Positions 16,739-59,911 of a DNA stretch of 64,000 nt are shown here, one piece after another. Within the stretch, counting starts at the first letter, position 1; the number at the start of each line of letters is the position of its first letter. The notes below the pieces were generated by a model. It searched no databases, was not told where the DNA came from, and saw only the letters and a program-made list of their open reading frames with translations. Source of the DNA: Patescibacteria group bacterium (GTDB lineage: Bacteria > Patescibacteriota > Patescibacteriia > UBA10025 > JBIOWE01); the NCBI GenBank assembly GCA_044868145.1, contig JBIOWE010000006.1, positions 78,558 through 142,557 on the forward strand, read 5' to 3'. The translations under genes and the position numbers were made by a program.

Positions 16739-16767
16739 TTGACAACCATTCTTGTCCATTCTACAAT
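16739..16767 (+). promoter_or_regulatory. consensus sigma70 promoter TTGACA-17-TACAAT for secE-nusG-rplK
   Basis: -35 at 16739-16744, -10 at 16762-16767; preceded by the conserved CT-rich upstream motif (see findings). Confidence 0.6.
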
Positions 16768-16811: not shown

Positions 16812-17000
16812 ATGTTTAAGTGGTTATTGCGCTATTTTCGAGAATCCCGCGATGAGCTACGCAAAGTTGTTTGGCCTTCGAGGCGCGATTTGGTCCGATA
16901 TACGTTGATCGTGATCGGCTTTAGCTTGTTTATGGCTATTTTTTTGGGAGCGGTCGATTTTATACTGACAATAGCGCTTGAGAAAGTTTTTAGTCGTTAG
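16812..17000 (+). CDS. secE: preprotein translocase subunit SecE
   Basis: 62 aa; single C-terminal TM; ELRKVVWPSRRDL motif; immediately upstream of nusG. Confidence 0.85.
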   Translation: MFKWLLRYFRESRDELRKVVWPSRRDLVRYTLIVIGFSLFMAIFLGAVDFILTIALEKVFSR

Positions 17001-17011
17001 CCGGAGCTTTT

Positions 17012-17557
17012 ATGCCAAAACAAACAGCACAACTTGGTCGCCGATGGTACGTTCTCCATACGTATTCAGGATACGAAGAAAACGTTGCGCAAAACTTGCG
17101 CCAGCGTATTGAATCAATGGGTATGGAGGACAAGATTTTCAATGTGTTAATCCCGACTGAGAATAAGATTAAGATAAAAAACGGTACAAGGAAGATCGTG
17201 ACCGAGAAGATTTTTCCCGGCTACGTGCTCGTCGAGATGATCGTGACCGATGATTCATGGTATGTCGTGCGTAACACCCCGAACGTCACCGGGTTCGTTG
17301 GCTCAGGCACGACGCCGACCCCGATTTCCGACACAGAGGTGAAAGAGATCCAACGGCGCATGGGGATTGCCGAGCCGAAGTACAAAATCGATGTTACCCC
17401 GGGCACACCTGTTCGCATCACGGATGGGCCATTCAAAGAATTTGAAGGGAAAGTTTCCGAAGTGGATGAGTCGCGTGGTAAAGTAAAAGTACTTGTTTCA
17501 TTATTCGGACGCGAAACACCCGTTGAGCTGGACTTCTTGCAAATTAAGAAACTTTAA
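17012..17557 (+). CDS. nusG: transcription termination/antitermination factor NusG
   Basis: 181 aa; [14 protein letters not shown] domain and C-terminal KOW ([30 protein letters not shown]). Confidence 0.95.
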
Positions 17558-17562
17558 AGAAT

Positions 17563-17991
17563 ATGGCGACAAAAAAAATAAAGACGATCGTGAAGCTCCA
17601 AATACCCGCAGCCAAAGCAACGCCGGCGCCACCGATAGGGCCAGCGCTCGGGCAACACGGCTTGAATATTCAGGAGTTTTGCAAACAATTTAACGACCGC
17701 ACAGAGGGAATGAGCGGTGATATTGTGCCGGCAGAAATAACTATTTTTGAAGATCGTACGTTTAAGTTCGTCTTAAAAACTCCTCCCGCCGCGGAGCTCT
17801 TGAAAAAAGCGGCGAAGATCGAGAAAGGATCCGGTAGCCCGTTGAGCCAAAAAGTCGGCAAAGTCACAAAGCAACAAATTCGAGAGATCGCCGAGAAGAA
17901 AATGCCTGATTTGAACGCGAAAGACATCGAAGGGGCGATGCGGATTGTTGAAGGCACCGCGCGCAACATGGGTCTGACCGTGGAAAAGTAA
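17563..17991 (+). CDS. rplK: 50S ribosomal protein L11
   Basis: 142 aa; [30 protein letters not shown]. Confidence 0.97.
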
Positions 17992-17998
17992 GAGGTCA

Positions 17999-18964
17999 AT
18001 GCTTAGTTTGCTTATCCCGTTTGGGATTCTCATTATTATTATCTTTGCCATCGTGGCAATGATAGAAGGTAAAACAACAATGAAAAAAGGACGGGTGATT
18101 CGCAGTCTGTATTTCTATTTGACGTCGCTCATTACGCTCGCTATCGTGGTGGGCTCGTTGATTTATCTTATTAACCTTGGCTTGAAGAGCTACGCGTTTA
18201 AGGATGCCGATGCGGGGCTTGATTATGCGGGCGCGCCGCCGACATTATTCTTGGACGCCACAACAACTCCGGAGGCAGCGAAGCCGGTTGGACCGATAGA
18301 TGCAAAACTTTCGTGCGAAAAGGATTGTACGCTTACGGAAACGCAAAAAACGGGTATCGAGAGTTGGAAAACTAACTATCAGCAATGGCAAAGGACCGCA
18401 GCCGATCCCAGCGCAAGGCGGACGCGAGATGCGGTTGCCGCGCTTTCGTTTTTTCTCGTGGCGCTTCCATTTTTCATTATTCATTTTCGCGTAGTGCAAA
18501 AGGATGCAAAACAGCAAGACGAGTCTGAACCAGGCGCGATGCGGCCAATGTATTTTTACTTCGTGGCGCTGGCATCGCTCGTGATGATCGTTGTCGCCGG
18601 CGGTTTTCTCATTAACGTCGGTTTGAAAACATGGGTGTTCCCGAAAGCCGGCCAAGTAGACCAACAGGTGGTACGGCCGTATATTGCTGAATCTGATGCG
18701 AATAAAACCGTTATGGCAAGCCTGGTTGATTGTGCGGATAAGTGCGGTATTGACGCCGAAACAAAAGCGCTCGCGCAGAAGTGGCAAACTGATTACGATT
18801 CGTGGCAGGCACGGGTTAATAAACCGACGAACACGAACCAGCGTCAGGCCGCGACCTCCATTCCGTATGTGTTCGTCGGCATACCGCTGTTTTGGTACCA
18901 CTGGACCGTAGCGCGTCGCGAATCAAAAGAACGCAAGCAATCTCCGCCGACGATGGCTACATAA
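17999..18964 (+). CDS. hypothetical membrane protein with internal tandem duplication (2 x [2 TM + Cys-pair + W..Q.W motif]) inserted between rplK and rplA
   Basis: Repeat 1 RSLYFYLTSLITLAIVVGSLIYLINLGLKSYAF...CEKDC...WKTNYQQWQ; repeat 2 RPMYFYFVALASLVMIVVAGGFLINVGLKTWVF...CADKCG...WQTDYDSWQ. Confidence 0.6.
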   Translation: MLSLLIPFGILIIIIFAIVAMIEGKTTMKKGRVIRSLYFYLTSLITLAIVVGSLIYLINLGLKSYAFKDADAGLDYAGAPPTLFLDATTTPEAAKPVGPIDAKLSCEKDCTLTETQKTGIESWKTNYQQWQRTAADPSARRTRDAVAALSFFLVALPFFIIHFRVVQKDAKQQDESEPGAMRPMYFYFVALASLVMIVVAGGFLINVGLKTWVFPKAGQVDQQVVRPYIAESDANKTVMASLVDCADKCGIDAETKALAQKWQTDYDSWQARVNKPTNTNQRQAATSIPYVFVGIPLFWYHWTVARRESKERKQSPPTMAT

Positions 18965-18969
18965 AGAAT

Positions 18970-19653
18970 ATGACCGATCGATCAAAACGATATTCACAGG
19001 CAAAAAAGCTTGTTGATAGTACGAAGACGTACGATATTGACGAAGCTTTACAATTGGTCAAGAAAATTTCGACGACCAAGTTTGACGGAAGCGTCGAGGT
19101 CCATATCAAACTGGGCATTGATCCAAAAAAAGGAGATCAGTCCGTGCGCGGTTCCGTCACGCTGCCCCACGGAACCGGCAAAAAGAAGATCATCGCCGTT
19201 TTTGCAGAAGGCAAGGCGGCTGATGACGCCCGCGCGGCAGGCGCCGACATCGTTGGCGGCGACGAGCTGATTCAAGAAATAAAAAAGACCGGTAAAGTTA
19301 ATTTCGAGATTGGTATGGCGACGCCTGCGATGATGAAAAAGCTCGGTCCCGTTGCCAAGATTCTTGGGCCGAAAGGACTGATGCCCAATCCAAAGAACGA
19401 GACAATCACCGATGACGTTGCGAAGACTGTGGCTGCGCTCTCGAGCGGAAAGATTACTTTTCGAAATGATGAGTCCGGCAATATTCATCAAGTTATCGGA
19501 AAGACGTCTTTTGAGACGAAGCAGCTTGGTGAGAACCTGTCAACATTTCTCGAAGCGGTAAAACGTACAAAGCCCCAAGCCCTCAAAGGCACCTTTCTGC
19601 TTGGCATGGCGGTCGCATCGACCATGAGTCCTGCAATCAAGATTAAAAGTTAA
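18970..19653 (+). CDS. rplA: 50S ribosomal protein L1
   Basis: 228 aa from ATG 18970 (MTDRSKRYSQAKKLVD...); conserved L1 sequence. Confidence 0.95.
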   Translation: MTDRSKRYSQAKKLVDSTKTYDIDEALQLVKKISTTKFDGSVEVHIKLGIDPKKGDQSVRGSVTLPHGTGKKKIIAVFAEGKAADDARAAGADIVGGDELIQEIKKTGKVNFEIGMATPAMMKKLGPVAKILGPKGLMPNPKNETITDDVAKTVAALSSGKITFRNDESGNIHQVIGKTSFETKQLGENLSTFLEAVKRTKPQALKGTFLLGMAVASTMSPAIKIKS

Positions 19654-19669: not shown

Positions 19670-20368
19670 ATGGGAGCCGCCGCAAAAAGGATTTTAAGGA
19701 TTGGACACCGCGGGGCTGCCGGGTATGCGCTTGAGAATACGGTCGCGTCATTTCAGAAAGCGATCGAACTTGGCTGCGACATGATCGAAGTTGACGTGGC
19801 GAAGACGTGCGATGACGAGCTCATACTCATGCACGACGCACTCGTAGACCGAACCACTGTCGCAACAGGCTTCGTACGAGACTTGCGACGGTCGGATGTC
19901 GAATCCATACGCACGAAGAACGGAGAACGGTTGCTGATGCTCCACGAGCTTCTGGATACATTCGGCGGACGCATCCGGCTCAACCTCGAATTAAAAAGTG
20001 CCGGGACAGCTGCACTGGTTGGGCGTCTACTCAAGAAGAAAGGAATCGATGGCCAGATAGTCGTTTCTTCGTTTTCGCATGAAGAGATACGCGAATTCAA
20101 AAAGCTCAATGCATCCGTGAAAGCAGCTATTCTGCTCGGTGGATCACCCGCGGATTTAAACGATCTTGCGATGCTCATACGCAAAGCCGATGCCGACGGT
20201 GTAAGCCTCGCTTACGAAACAGTGACTAGCGAGGTGGTTCAATTTCTCCATGAGAACAAATATTTTGTTTATGTTTGGACAGTCAACGACCCCCGTGAAA
20301 TCGCCTTAATGAGATCAATGGGAGTCGATGGGATTATCAGCGATTACCCGGACCGCCTAGTAAATTAA
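19670..20368 (+). CDS. glycerophosphodiester phosphodiesterase (GDPD family)
   Basis: IGHRGAAGYALENT ... EVDV ... HD motifs of GDPD/UgpQ fold. Confidence 0.8.
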   Translation: MGAAAKRILRIGHRGAAGYALENTVASFQKAIELGCDMIEVDVAKTCDDELILMHDALVDRTTVATGFVRDLRRSDVESIRTKNGERLLMLHELLDTFGGRIRLNLELKSAGTAALVGRLLKKKGIDGQIVVSSFSHEEIREFKKLNASVKAAILLGGSPADLNDLAMLIRKADADGVSLAYETVTSEVVQFLHENKYFVYVWTVNDPREIALMRSMGVDGIISDYPDRLVN

Positions 20369-20453
20369 AAATGAAAAATTAAAAAGTAAAAATATCGAAA
20401 GAATTTCTTTACATTTTTTTATCTTTACTATTTAGTTTTTTATTTGGTGTCGT

Positions 20454-22055
20454 ATGGCTGACGACAAACGAGACATCTTTGCAATCGTAGGATTACCACC
20501 CGAGGTACTCGCGGTCGCCATGGCGAAGTATTCCCGTTCTGCGAAATCCATCAAGGAAACGATTGATGAGTTGACCGAGGAAAAATCCGCAGAGTTTCAC
20601 GAAAAGTGGGTGTTGGGATACGGCGATGCGTCCGTCGCTGATATGGCAATTGTTGCGCTCGCGCTGGAGAATGTTTCCATTCTCGCGAGCAAAGTGATCG
20701 AAGACAACCGAATAGCCGCGTATCAAGAAAAATCCACGCGCTACCAGTCATTCGCGCTTGAAGATAAAGAATTATCAGCTCACTTGCTTGAGCGCAAAGA
20801 AACCGGAGAAGCATTCGCTCGAAAAAGGTACTTCAAGCCCCGGGCAATCATGGCGTCCGGCCAAGCGGCTTTGTTCACGCAAACGGCCGACTTTTTGTTT
20901 GAGCAATACACGGAGATAACAAAGAAGATGATGGAGTATTATTCGCGGAAGTACCCCAAGCCTGCGGACATGACGGATAAGGCCTACGCCGCAAAAGTGC
21001 GGGCACGCTCGCTCGACGTGGCCAGATATTTGTTGCCGGCGGCGACGTTGACGAATTTCGGCATGATCATCAATGCGCGCTCGCTCCGTCATGCGATTTC
21101 CAAAATGATGGGACATCAGCTGGAAGAATTACACGAGATCGGGGCGGAAATGCGGGAAGCCGCCATCAACCCGGCATACAATCCGCAGTCGAAAAAGATC
21201 GAGCAATTACTTGCCCAACTGCGTGCGCTCGGAGGAAAAACGCAGGAGTTAGCCGACCAAGTTCAACAATCCATTTCCCTCCAAGTGAAAGGAGCGCCGA
21301 CGCTTATCAAACATACGGACCCCAAAGAGTATTTAACAAAAACAAGCACGAAACTTGCGGCGATCGCCTCGGAATTACTGAAAGACGTGGTTCCGGAAGC
21401 GGGGGAGCGCGCGTCCTATCTGGGGGTGGATGAAACGTACGAAGACGAGCTGATCATCACCCTTCTTTACGGCGTATCTCATTGCGCGTATCGTCAGATT
21501 GCCGACGTCGTGAGGCGATTGCAAGAAGCGAAGAAAAAAGAAATTATTAAAATCGCAACAGCGCATCGCAGCCAGTGGGATTGGCCGACGCGCCACTTTG
21601 AAACCGGTCGTCAATTCACCTTTGACACGCTTATGGACTATGGCGCGTTTCGGGACCTCCAGCGCCATCGGCTCACGACGCAGATCAACCAAGAGCTGGG
21701 AGTTGAGCATGGCTATGAATTGCCGCTTGGCCTTGGCATTGACGAAGCGGGACTCACTGCACAAATGTCGCAAGCGCTTGAACGCGTGAAAGAAGTATAC
21801 CTCGAGCTGAAATACTCATTCCCGAACGAAGCGCAATACATTATCCCGCTCGGGTTTCGGAAGCGTACGCTTTTTAAAATGAATCTTCGCGAGCTCACGC
21901 ATATCGTGGAACTGCGGACAAAAGCGGGAGGTCACCTATCGTACCGCGACCTGTGCTATGAAATGTATGCAAAAGTATCCAAGCGGCACCCACTGCTCAC
22001 CATGCACATACGCGCCGTGAAGCCGGATTTCCCTAAGGAATTTTTTGAACGCTAG
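20454..22055 (+). CDS. thyX: FAD-dependent thymidylate synthase ThyX-like, fused two-domain (533 aa)
   Basis: Degenerate ThyX motifs in each half (YSRS...STRYQS in the N-half; QRHRLTTQ in the C-half); immediately followed by tmk. Confidence 0.6.
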   Translation: MADDKRDIFAIVGLPPEVLAVAMAKYSRSAKSIKETIDELTEEKSAEFHEKWVLGYGDASVADMAIVALALENVSILASKVIEDNRIAAYQEKSTRYQSFALEDKELSAHLLERKETGEAFARKRYFKPRAIMASGQAALFTQTADFLFEQYTEITKKMMEYYSRKYPKPADMTDKAYAAKVRARSLDVARYLLPAATLTNFGMIINARSLRHAISKMMGHQLEELHEIGAEMREAAINPAYNPQSKKIEQLLAQLRALGGKTQELADQVQQSISLQVKGAPTLIKHTDPKEYLTKTSTKLAAIASELLKDVVPEAGERASYLGVDETYEDELIITLLYGVSHCAYRQIADVVRRLQEAKKKEIIKIATAHRSQWDWPTRHFETGRQFTFDTLMDYGAFRDLQRHRLTTQINQELGVEHGYELPLGLGIDEAGLTAQMSQALERVKEVYLELKYSFPNEAQYIIPLGFRKRTLFKMNLRELTHIVELRTKAGGHLSYRDLCYEMYAKVSKRHPLLTMHIRAVKPDFPKEFFER

Positions 22056-22057
22056 CT

Positions 22058-22780
22058 ATGAAAAAACATAAAGGTATTTTTATCATGGTAGACGGCATTG
22101 ACGGTTCCGGCAAAGGAACCATCGTCCAAGGCCTTGGCGCTTGGATGCGCAAGAAAGGCAAGCGCATTTTAGACCTTCGCAGCTATATGAAACGCCGGCA
22201 TAGTTTGCCGGAGCCGGAAGCATTGAAGCCATACGACGTCATTCTTTCCGCAGAGCCGACTTTTTCTCTTATTGGCCGAGCGATTCGCGAAGAAATCGTC
22301 CGCGATAACAAACGGGAGTATTCCGCGCTTGCGACAGCACAGGCGTTTGCGCTCGATCGTTTTATTTTGTATAAACGGGTTATTATTCCGGCGCTCTTGC
22401 AAGGCAAGTCTATTTTTCAGGAACGAGGGATCTCAAGCTCGATTGCGTACCAGCCTATTCAGAAAGAGCGACTGTCGCTTCAGGCTATTCTTTCATTGGA
22501 AGGCAACAAACTCGCACTCCGCTACAGGCCGGATATTTTGCTGATTACCACAGTTGATCCAAGAGAAGCCGCCCATCGCTTAACCAAGCGTGATGGAAAA
22601 AAAGACAACGCGATTTTTGAGCACCTAACGTTCTTGGCGAGGTTAAAAAAGCGTTACGAAGCGCCGTGGTTTCGCTCGATATTCATGAAGCGCGGCACAA
22701 TCGTGCGTTATATCGATGCGAGCACGCCAAAGCCGGAAACTATCCGCCAAGCAATAAATGTTTTGTCAAAGAGCTCCTAG
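22058..22780 (+). CDS. tmk: thymidylate kinase
   Basis: P-loop VDGIDGSGKGT; dTMP kinase family; downstream of thyX. Confidence 0.85.
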   Translation: MKKHKGIFIMVDGIDGSGKGTIVQGLGAWMRKKGKRILDLRSYMKRRHSLPEPEALKPYDVILSAEPTFSLIGRAIREEIVRDNKREYSALATAQAFALDRFILYKRVIIPALLQGKSIFQERGISSSIAYQPIQKERLSLQAILSLEGNKLALRYRPDILLITTVDPREAAHRLTKRDGKKDNAIFEHLTFLARLKKRYEAPWFRSIFMKRGTIVRYIDASTPKPETIRQAINVLSKSS

Positions 22781-59766: not shown

Positions 59767-59837
59767 GCGGGTGTAGTATAGCGGCAGTACGCTTGCTTCC
59801 CAAGCAAGAAGAGGCGGTTCGACTCCGCTCATCCGCT
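59767..59837 (+). tRNA. tRNA-Gly (anticodon CCC)
   Basis: Acceptor GCGGGTG/CATCCGC (one G-U), anticodon stem CTTGC/GCAAG, loop ttCCCaa, T-arm GGCGG-TTCGACT-CCGCT, discriminator U. Confidence 0.8.
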
Positions 59838-59862
59838 CGGGCGAAGGCAGGCGGGGAACCGG

Positions 59863-59911
59863 CGCAACAACCTTGGGAAGGTTGTGTACTACCACTATAC
59901 GAATCCCGCAA
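59863..59911 (-). pseudogene. inverted partial tRNA-Gly(CCC)-like copy (5' half intact, 3' half degenerate)
   Basis: Reverse complement GCGGGATTCGTATAGTGGTAGTACACAACCTTCCCAAGGTTG has acceptor, D-arm and CCC anticodon arm but no valid T-arm/acceptor 3' strand. Confidence 0.4.

Follow-up and report, generated by a model that had tools for sequence, protein, structure and literature searches.

The window, a 64,000-nucleotide (nt) stretch of the genome of a Patescibacteria group bacterium (contig JBIOWE010000006.1, positions 78,558 to 142,557 of the forward strand; assembly GCA_044868145.1), carries a gene for a membrane protein of the Pfam family DUF5671 (PF18920) between the genes for ribosomal proteins L11 (rplK) and L1 (rplA). 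Adjacent rplK and rplA are among the most conserved gene pairs of bacteria, and here they are separated by an insert of 966 nt. An initial annotation of this DNA had reported a 321-amino-acid (aa) open reading frame (ORF) at 17999-18964, starting 7 nt past rplK and ending 5 nt before rplA, and had read it as a membrane-protein gene interrupting the ribosomal pair. These coordinates proved exact, and Pfam confirmed L11 and L1 as the flanking genes. The features of the locus are given below in window coordinates; all genes from secE to rplA lie on the + strand.

16739..16767, + strand: promoter-like site TTGACA-17-TACAAT, 11/12 consensus matches, 45 nt 5' of secE; candidate promoter of the operon
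16812..17000, + strand: secE (Pfam SecE, E 2.2e-21)
17012..17557, + strand: nusG (Pfam NusG, E 1.9e-32, plus KOW)
17563..17991, + strand: rplK, encoding L11 (Pfam L11, E 6e-30 and 3e-27); starts 5 nt past the nusG stop
17990..17995, + strand: AAGAGG, putative Shine-Dalgarno sequence of the DUF5671 gene, overlapping the rplK stop codon
17999..18964, + strand: DUF5671 gene for a membrane protein of 321 aa with two tandem modules and five transmembrane (TM) helices (Pfam, BLASTP, alignment, hydropathy and AlphaFold2 (AF2) model)
18080..18526, + strand: module 1, residues 28-176, with TM2, a predicted outside loop of 82 aa and TM3
18314..18328, + strand: first Cys pair, C106-x3-C110 (CEKDC), invariant
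18527..18961, + strand: module 2, residues 177-321, with TM4, a predicted outside loop of 75 aa, TM5 and a basic tail
18731..18745, + strand: second Cys pair, C245-x3-C249 (CADKC), invariant
18962..18972, + strand: TAA-AGAAT-ATG, stop-start junction of the DUF5671 gene with rplA, in place of the 48-125 nt operator-bearing spacer of relatives
18970..19653, + strand: rplA, encoding L1 (Pfam Ribosomal_L1, E 5.3e-56)

The insert is packed closely at both ends. The stop codon TAA of rplK (17989-17991) is followed by the 7-nt spacer GAGGTCA and the ATG of the DUF5671 gene at 17999, and the stop codon TAA of the latter (18962-18964) is followed by the 5-nt spacer AGAAT and the ATG of rplA at 18970. 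No convincing internal terminator was found within the secE-rplA cluster. The GC content of the inserted gene (0.50) and that of its third codon positions (0.54) equal those of the neighbouring genes. The nusG/rplK junction (17555-17565) and the DUF5671/rplA junction (18962-18972) consist of the same 11 nt, TAAAGAATATG, which could be a preferred reinitiation junction or a coincidence.

The ORF is a genuine gene of DUF5671. Its product scored 66.8 bits against a cut-off of 28.4 (E 2.2e-18) in three matched stretches of the Pfam profile, and an NCBIfam scan of the same protein gave no match. The two homologous modules described in the initial annotation were recovered by BLASTP of one half against the other, in which residues 6-176 aligned with residues 156-315 (171 aa) at 26-26.6% identity with E 3e-21. 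The Cys pairs and the W(K/Q)T(N/D)Y(Q/D)(Q/S)WQ motifs are likewise present as quoted there, CEKDC being followed by WKTNYQQWQ and CADKC by WQTDYDSWQ. In an alignment of 32 homologues, 21 positions do not vary, among them those of the four Cys, W123 and W262, and the TM motifs show little or no variation. Two TM helices per module had also been proposed; the hydrophobic helices are there, but their total is five and not four. Hydropathy and the AF2 model place them at residues 2-22 (TM1), 37-62 (TM2), 145-164 (TM3), 184-209 (TM4) and 285-303 (TM5), and TM1 is absent from several homologues. The AF2 model is all helical, with a predicted local distance difference test score (pLDDT) of 82 and a predicted template modelling score (pTM) of 0.73. 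The unit of the family spans about 140 aa: two TM helices enclose a loop of 75-82 aa, and this loop carries a Cys pair and an aromatic helix (W-x3-Y-x2-W).

Short segments between the TM helices are rich in lysine and arginine (K/R). By the positive-inside rule, these short loops and the tail would be cytoplasmic, and the two long Cys-bearing loops would lie outside, where they are probably stapled by disulfides. The aromatic helix of each loop may be amphipathic and rest on the outer leaflet. Two further motifs, R-x2-Y-x-Y and P-[LIVF]-[FWY]-x2-H, occur as IRSLYFY and LPFFIIHF in module 1 and as MRPMYFY and IPLFWYHW in module 2. The core of the second, P-x4-H, is found in 287 of 294 one-module members of the family, and among 126 two-module members it occurs twice in 76 and once in 36. 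With this topology, the family-wide conserved R-x2-Y-x-Y and P-L-F-x2-H-W would be situated at the cytoplasmic face of the membrane. No solved relative was found by sequence, and the best Foldseek match had E 0.2 and a template modelling score (TM-score) of 0.24.

Homology searches were employed to place the protein among its relatives. In a large protein collection, 78 homologues with 33-59% identity over essentially the full length were retrieved, all annotated PF18920, and every source name among them that specifies a taxon is Patescibacteria or Candidatus Kerfeldbacteria. An exhaustive profile search at E<=1e-3 returned 1206 representative clusters, which fall into three size classes: two-module proteins (~320 aa), one-module proteins (~140 aa) and multi-repeat proteins (~640 aa, 4-7 matched stretches). 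The widest of the homologue searches brought in about 1,900 members of the family. One-module proteins match both halves of the window protein at 23-35% identity. Because a one-module protein matches each half (up to 35%) better than the halves match each other, and because all two-module proteins share module-specific features, the two-module form appears to have arisen by a single old tandem duplication, in place, of a one-module gene. The size classes also differ in their Cys content. Nearly all two-module members possess four Cys; of the one-module members, 23% contain none and 64% exactly two, and the spacers are of 3 or, mostly, 15-40 residues; the multi-repeat relatives lack the Cys-bearing loop and CX3C, and 14 of 30 examined have no Cys whatever. 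A redox-active CX3C as the function of the family was judged unlikely from these Cys statistics.

Two observations on individual family members may be recorded here. The proteins P0152, P0154 and P0149, of about 560-650 aa, are matched by the DUF5671 profile in 5-6 stretches and have short, Cys-free loops; P0152, the one that was scanned with Pfam, consists of six DUF5671 hairpin repeats and a C-terminal DUF3842, with 231.7 bits. In the locus L025:4124-4982 (also L067/L071), labelled Parcubacteria GW2011_GWA2_48_9, the DUF5671 match is split across two reading frames, for which a frameshift, a pseudogene or faulty assembly may account.

The order of genes around the insert was compared across related genomes by tblastn with the window SecE, NusG, L11 and L1 against genome loci, one genome per species. 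The order rplK-DUF5671-rplA was found in 36 of 40 genome loci, and DUF5671 is flanked by L11 and/or L1 in 36 of 39 metagenome loci. The spacing between rplK and rplA, which the initial annotation had singled out for comparison, is thus interrupted recurrently, and the ORF is neither spurious nor confined to the window genome, given its 78 homologues and their conserved synteny. The order secE-nusG-rplK-DUF5671-rplA is common to dozens of Patescibacteria, which are ultra-small bacteria. The slot between rplK and rplA is also occupied by one-module genes (130-153 aa) in L035-L040, records labelled Uhrbacteria and Gracilibacteria, and likewise in a Buchananbacteria-labelled record (P0142) and two unlabelled lineages. 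In the Buchananbacteria-labelled record gyrB lies upstream too, with one small gene between gyrB and secE, much like the window. The DUF5671 gene is vertically inherited.

Other genes have entered this cluster in single lineages. Lineage-specific inserts were seen in L035:2617-3303, L039:2783-3514, L093:1265-1996, L012:3062-3448, L017:3112-3444, L028:1299-2625, L006:2556-3530 and L091:2970-3586. Read by eye, those between nusG and rplK include one lipoprotein-like ORF and one ORF of 243 aa with a membrane anchor. Others encode a four-helix-bundle protein and a MazG-like protein, and there are also two ORFs on the minus strand before rplA. The secE-nusG-rplK-rplA cluster seems to be an insertion hotspot.

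From the tight spacing, the initial annotation had concluded that the membrane protein is made in stoichiometric amounts with L11 and L1. This does not hold in general. Tight spacing on both sides is peculiar to the window genome when compared with 36 related loci, in which 48-125 nt (median ~68) usually separate the membrane gene from rplA, with one gap of 606 nt and one 4-nt overlap. In 34 of the 36, the spacer carries the arrangement TTGTGGGA(C/G)-variable hairpin-G..T.G.ACCAC-GAAAGGA-N7-ATG, which includes a Shine-Dalgarno sequence. Using RNAalifold, an invariant 4-bp helix P1 (GUGG/CCAC), a GA bulge and a 7-bp helix P2 were obtained, with compensatory changes in 7/7 P2 pairs and an asymmetric loop between the P2 hairpin and the CCAC of P1; at one locus the outer helix P1 has changed in a compensatory way to GCGG/CCGC. 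Over 46 distinct sequences, 94.8% of the cells are paired as compared with 73% in shuffles, and the covariation score is 0.504 as compared with 0.151 in shuffles and <=0.136 with the partners slid. A covariance model found 52 instances, all abutting rplA, including that of L015 with its 606-nt gap; examples lie at L002:4995-5058, L009:5010-5073, L047:3997-4055 and L015:5535-5598. In L015 (CP181398.1, a Kerfeldbacteria-labelled complete genome), the ~550 nt from the DUF5671 stop to this element (L015:4985-5534) hold no ORF of >=50 aa on either strand and may be what is left of a gene, or may encode a non-coding RNA.

The spacer RNA looks like the known L1 autoregulatory site, and it also resembles the L1-stalk sequence of 23S rRNA, GGUGGGAG...AUACCACC. 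The published consensus of L1-interacting mRNA is a short stem containing an internal bulge, which holds a G-A pair and an unpaired A (PMC3616713), and such sites stand before rplA in Cyanobacteria, Actinobacteria and Chloroflexi and before rplK in Proteobacteria (PMC3616713). The spacer element agrees with this description in being a bulged stem directly 5' of rplA, at its ribosome-binding site, with covariation (PMC3616713). Rfam (15) did not detect it. Rfam scans of the region at E<=10, of the whole window at gathering threshold and of 16 related loci returned, at or above gathering score, tRNAs only and no ribosomal-leader family. Since an operator-like element and a Shine-Dalgarno sequence of its own precede rplA, control of L1 synthesis would normally not depend on the membrane gene; in relatives, the insertion took place upstream of the operator, and L1 presumably goes on regulating itself.

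The L1 autoregulatory structure whose position had been raised in the initial annotation thus lies directly before rplA in nearly all relatives and is absent from the window. In a covariance search of the 64 kb, run with filters off, the top-scoring hit reached 12.9 bits (E 0.73) and lacked the GUGG/CCAC helix, and an operator pattern search of the window gave no match. L026 also lacks the operator, and the copy of L072 is degenerate. L047 and L052, whose proteins come closest to that of the window (58-59% identity), keep the operator, which suggests that its loss here was recent and lineage-specific.

The initial annotation would have counted it against its reading if relatives carried the gene apart from ribosomal genes, and this is partly the case: most loci are linked to ribosomal genes, but the two-module genes of L021-L023, L068 and L084 are not. 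In L021 and L023 the gene stands between a rhomboid gene and an ABC transporter gene, and in L022:3893-5384, L068:2977-4530 and L084:3007-4627 it precedes ferredoxin and Nfu genes. One-module genes were found between nifU_N and nfu-nifS (L041:2533-4995, L043:2525-5045, L088:2576-5369), divergent from Rrf2-nifS-nifU (L034:1468-4372), after lemA-htpX, after dagK-plsY, after a folC-like ligase gene and between two aminoacyl-tRNA synthetase genes; some family members lie near rpmA/rplI. The one-module relatives outside the rplK-rplA slot are as similar to the window protein as those within it. The common theme of these contexts is insertion into constitutive housekeeping operons.

Elsewhere in the window, a GDPD phosphodiesterase gene (Pfam-confirmed) follows rplA where rplJ-rplL would be expected, and after it come thyX (a 533-aa ORF) and a thymidylate kinase gene, both read by eye; these genes are tightly packed on the same strand (19670-22780). 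Two convergent tRNA-Gly(CCC) genes with zero spacing were called by ARAGORN at 59767-59838 (+) and 59839-59910 (-), of which the Rfam gathering threshold supports the + strand copy only.

Taken together, these results lead us to favour, with moderate confidence, the reading that the DUF5671 protein is a growth-coupled housekeeping protein of the envelope or of membrane homeostasis, carried in a strong operon, and not a component of the ribosome. This reading is the most economical because secE lies in the same operon, the promoter-like site is near consensus and the cluster has no convincing internal terminator. It would begin in an ancestor, with the fixation of a one-module gene between rplK and the L1 operator that precedes rplA, followed by doubling in place in the branch of the window genome and the Kerfeldbacteria-labelled records. 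The DUF5671 gene would be co-transcribed from the promoter-like site 5' of secE and translated from its own AAGAGG. In relatives, L1 would repress its own translation through an rRNA-mimicking site beside the GAAAGGA ribosome-binding site, so that there the membrane gene and rplA would not be held in a fixed expression ratio. In the window genome the operator spacer appears to have been deleted, and rplA may be translated by termination-reinitiation at TAA-AGAAT-ATG, as rplK may be after nusG, which is suggested by the identity of the two junctions. A place in a growth-rate-controlled operon would tie the supply of the protein to growth, as for secE here.

Several points weigh against this explanation. 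The exact rplK-rplA slot is kept from Gracilibacteria- to Kerfeldbacteria-labelled lineages, which is stronger retention than neutral hitch-hiking predicts and could reflect a real link with translation. The recurrent Nfu/ferredoxin neighbourhood, in four arrangements, hints at a more specific role for which a general envelope function does not account. The sampling of loci was biased by the peptide patterns used for their retrieval, and some metagenome loci are the same contigs as genome loci. Everything said of co-transcription and the promoter, of reinitiation at the 5-nt junction, of the topology and of the disulfides is read from sequence, and a search of literature and annotation gave no stated function for any DUF5671 protein.

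The deep conservation of the slot (36/40 and 36/39 loci, under the labels Kerfeld-, Buchanan-, Uhr- and Gracilibacteria) raises the idea that the protein is a partner of translation or secretion, either docking ribosomes through its basic C-terminal tail or acting as an accessory of SecYEG or YidC, with the slot selected for co-expression. We regard this as unlikely, since orthologues and close one-module relatives occupy unrelated contexts and rplA usually has its own operator, so that expression is not locked to L1. The presence of secE in the same operon and of one family member between two aminoacyl-tRNA synthetase genes and others near rpmA/rplI would suit such a partner, yet no sequence or fold likeness to known ribosome-binding or translocon proteins was detected. 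Docking would also agree with the K/R-rich tail, predicted to be cytoplasmic, and with the position of the most conserved family motifs at the predicted cytoplasmic membrane face; against it, L11 and L1 sit on two ribosomal stalks, distant from the exit tunnel at which membrane docking takes place. A bolder form, in which DUF5671 is a Patescibacteria-specific membrane component of translation, for example in ribosome docking or co-translational insertion, and selection for co-expression fixed the slot, is somewhat more doubtful still. If it were true, the loss of the operator would make L1 synthesis in the window lineage directly dependent on translation of the membrane protein's mRNA.

Equally doubtful is a function of the Cys pairs themselves, with the protein as a membrane redox, metal or iron-sulfur (Fe-S) factor that moves electrons, iron or sulfur between the outside and Nfu/ferredoxin. 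Within the two-module subfamily neither CX3C pair varies, but the Cys-free 23% of one-module members, and spacings that range from 3 to 40 residues, fit structural disulfides and speak against a motif for catalysis or ligand binding, and the multi-repeat relatives do without the Cys loop or CX3C. Family members stand in four distinct arrangements beside Fe-S genes, while the window has no Fe-S assembly gene near the DUF5671 gene. His, Tyr and Trp are conserved at the TM ends, as such a factor might require; the predicted topology, on the other side, would put the Cys outside and away from cytoplasmic Nfu and ferredoxin, and there is no Pfam, NCBIfam or Protein Data Bank (PDB) match to DsbB, VKOR, CcdA/DsbD or a redox family.

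A small oligomeric channel of MscL type, with two TM helices per unit and both ends inside, is effectively rejected as very improbable. The one-module topology is MscL-like and one source names a homologue 'large-conductance mechanosensitive channel', but in the MscL profile (PF01741) P0040 and P0036 score 26.3 and 17.8 bits, below the cut-off of 27.4, and these sub-threshold matches span the dispensable N-terminal helix only (residues 2-30); the window protein has no MscL match at E<=0.1, and no MscL chain appears among the Foldseek matches listed. Finally, a spurious ORF or a recent foreign or mobile insertion, for which nothing but the unusual position speaks, is dismissed in view of the 78 full-length homologues, the synteny across dozens of genomes, the native composition and the lack of any transposase gene seen among the flanking ORFs.

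To put the favoured envelope reading in context, the locus was compared with known systems. Small Tim proteins are twin CX3C helix-loop-helix proteins, and the window protein resembles them, as a resemblance only, in having one CX3C per module beside a helix and two modules. The likeness prompts the thought that disulfides might pair one module with the other or, in one-module forms, one subunit with another. The differences are that no sequence or fold match was found, that the window protein is membrane-bound and that many of its relatives have other Cys spacings or none.

DUF5671 is an already named Pfam family, uncharacterised, and a literature search found no paper mentioning DUF5671 or PF18920. 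The window protein shares the cytoplasm-proximal motifs of the family: one TM helix begins with R-x2-Y-F-Y, and its partner ends with P-L-F-x2-H-W. The model fits best to ~640-aa proteins with six short-looped repeats and DUF3842, whereas the window protein has two units with long Cys loops, and its subfamily, of which the named members are labelled Patescibacteria, sits in the rplK-rplA slot. The stable interruption of rplK-rplA across deep Patescibacteria points to DUF5671 as an envelope protein that is probably important and highly expressed.

Membrane genes are found within ribosomal operons elsewhere, secE with nusG-rplKA and secY in the spc operon. A membrane protein as a partner of ribosomal genes, which the initial annotation had called odd, is therefore not unusual, secE being already in the same operon here. 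Like secE and secY, the DUF5671 gene is co-oriented and tightly packed with ribosomal genes, an arrangement that plausibly couples envelope biogenesis to growth rate. SecE and SecY act in translocation, and no similarity of the window protein to either was detected.

The closest comparison is with the canonical L11 operon of Escherichia coli and its variants (PMC3616713), with which the locus shares the order secE-nusG-rplK...rplA. A literature search on gene order in the candidate phyla radiation (CPR) returned nothing relevant, and the conserved interruption of rplK-rplA in Patescibacteria, together with the loss of the operator in the window, is a variant of this well-known operon that our search did not find reported. 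Relatives keep the L1-site-like RNA before rplA, as in Cyanobacteria, Actinobacteria and Chloroflexi (PMC3616713). The window differs in that rplK and rplA are not adjacent, the operator is missing, rplA abuts the insert, and GDPD and thyX (the latter read by eye) lie downstream. The locus is thus a natural experiment in the regulation of ribosomal proteins, in which most relatives keep the operator, and in the window genome and at least one further genome rplA is joined to the stop codon of the membrane gene and the operator is gone.

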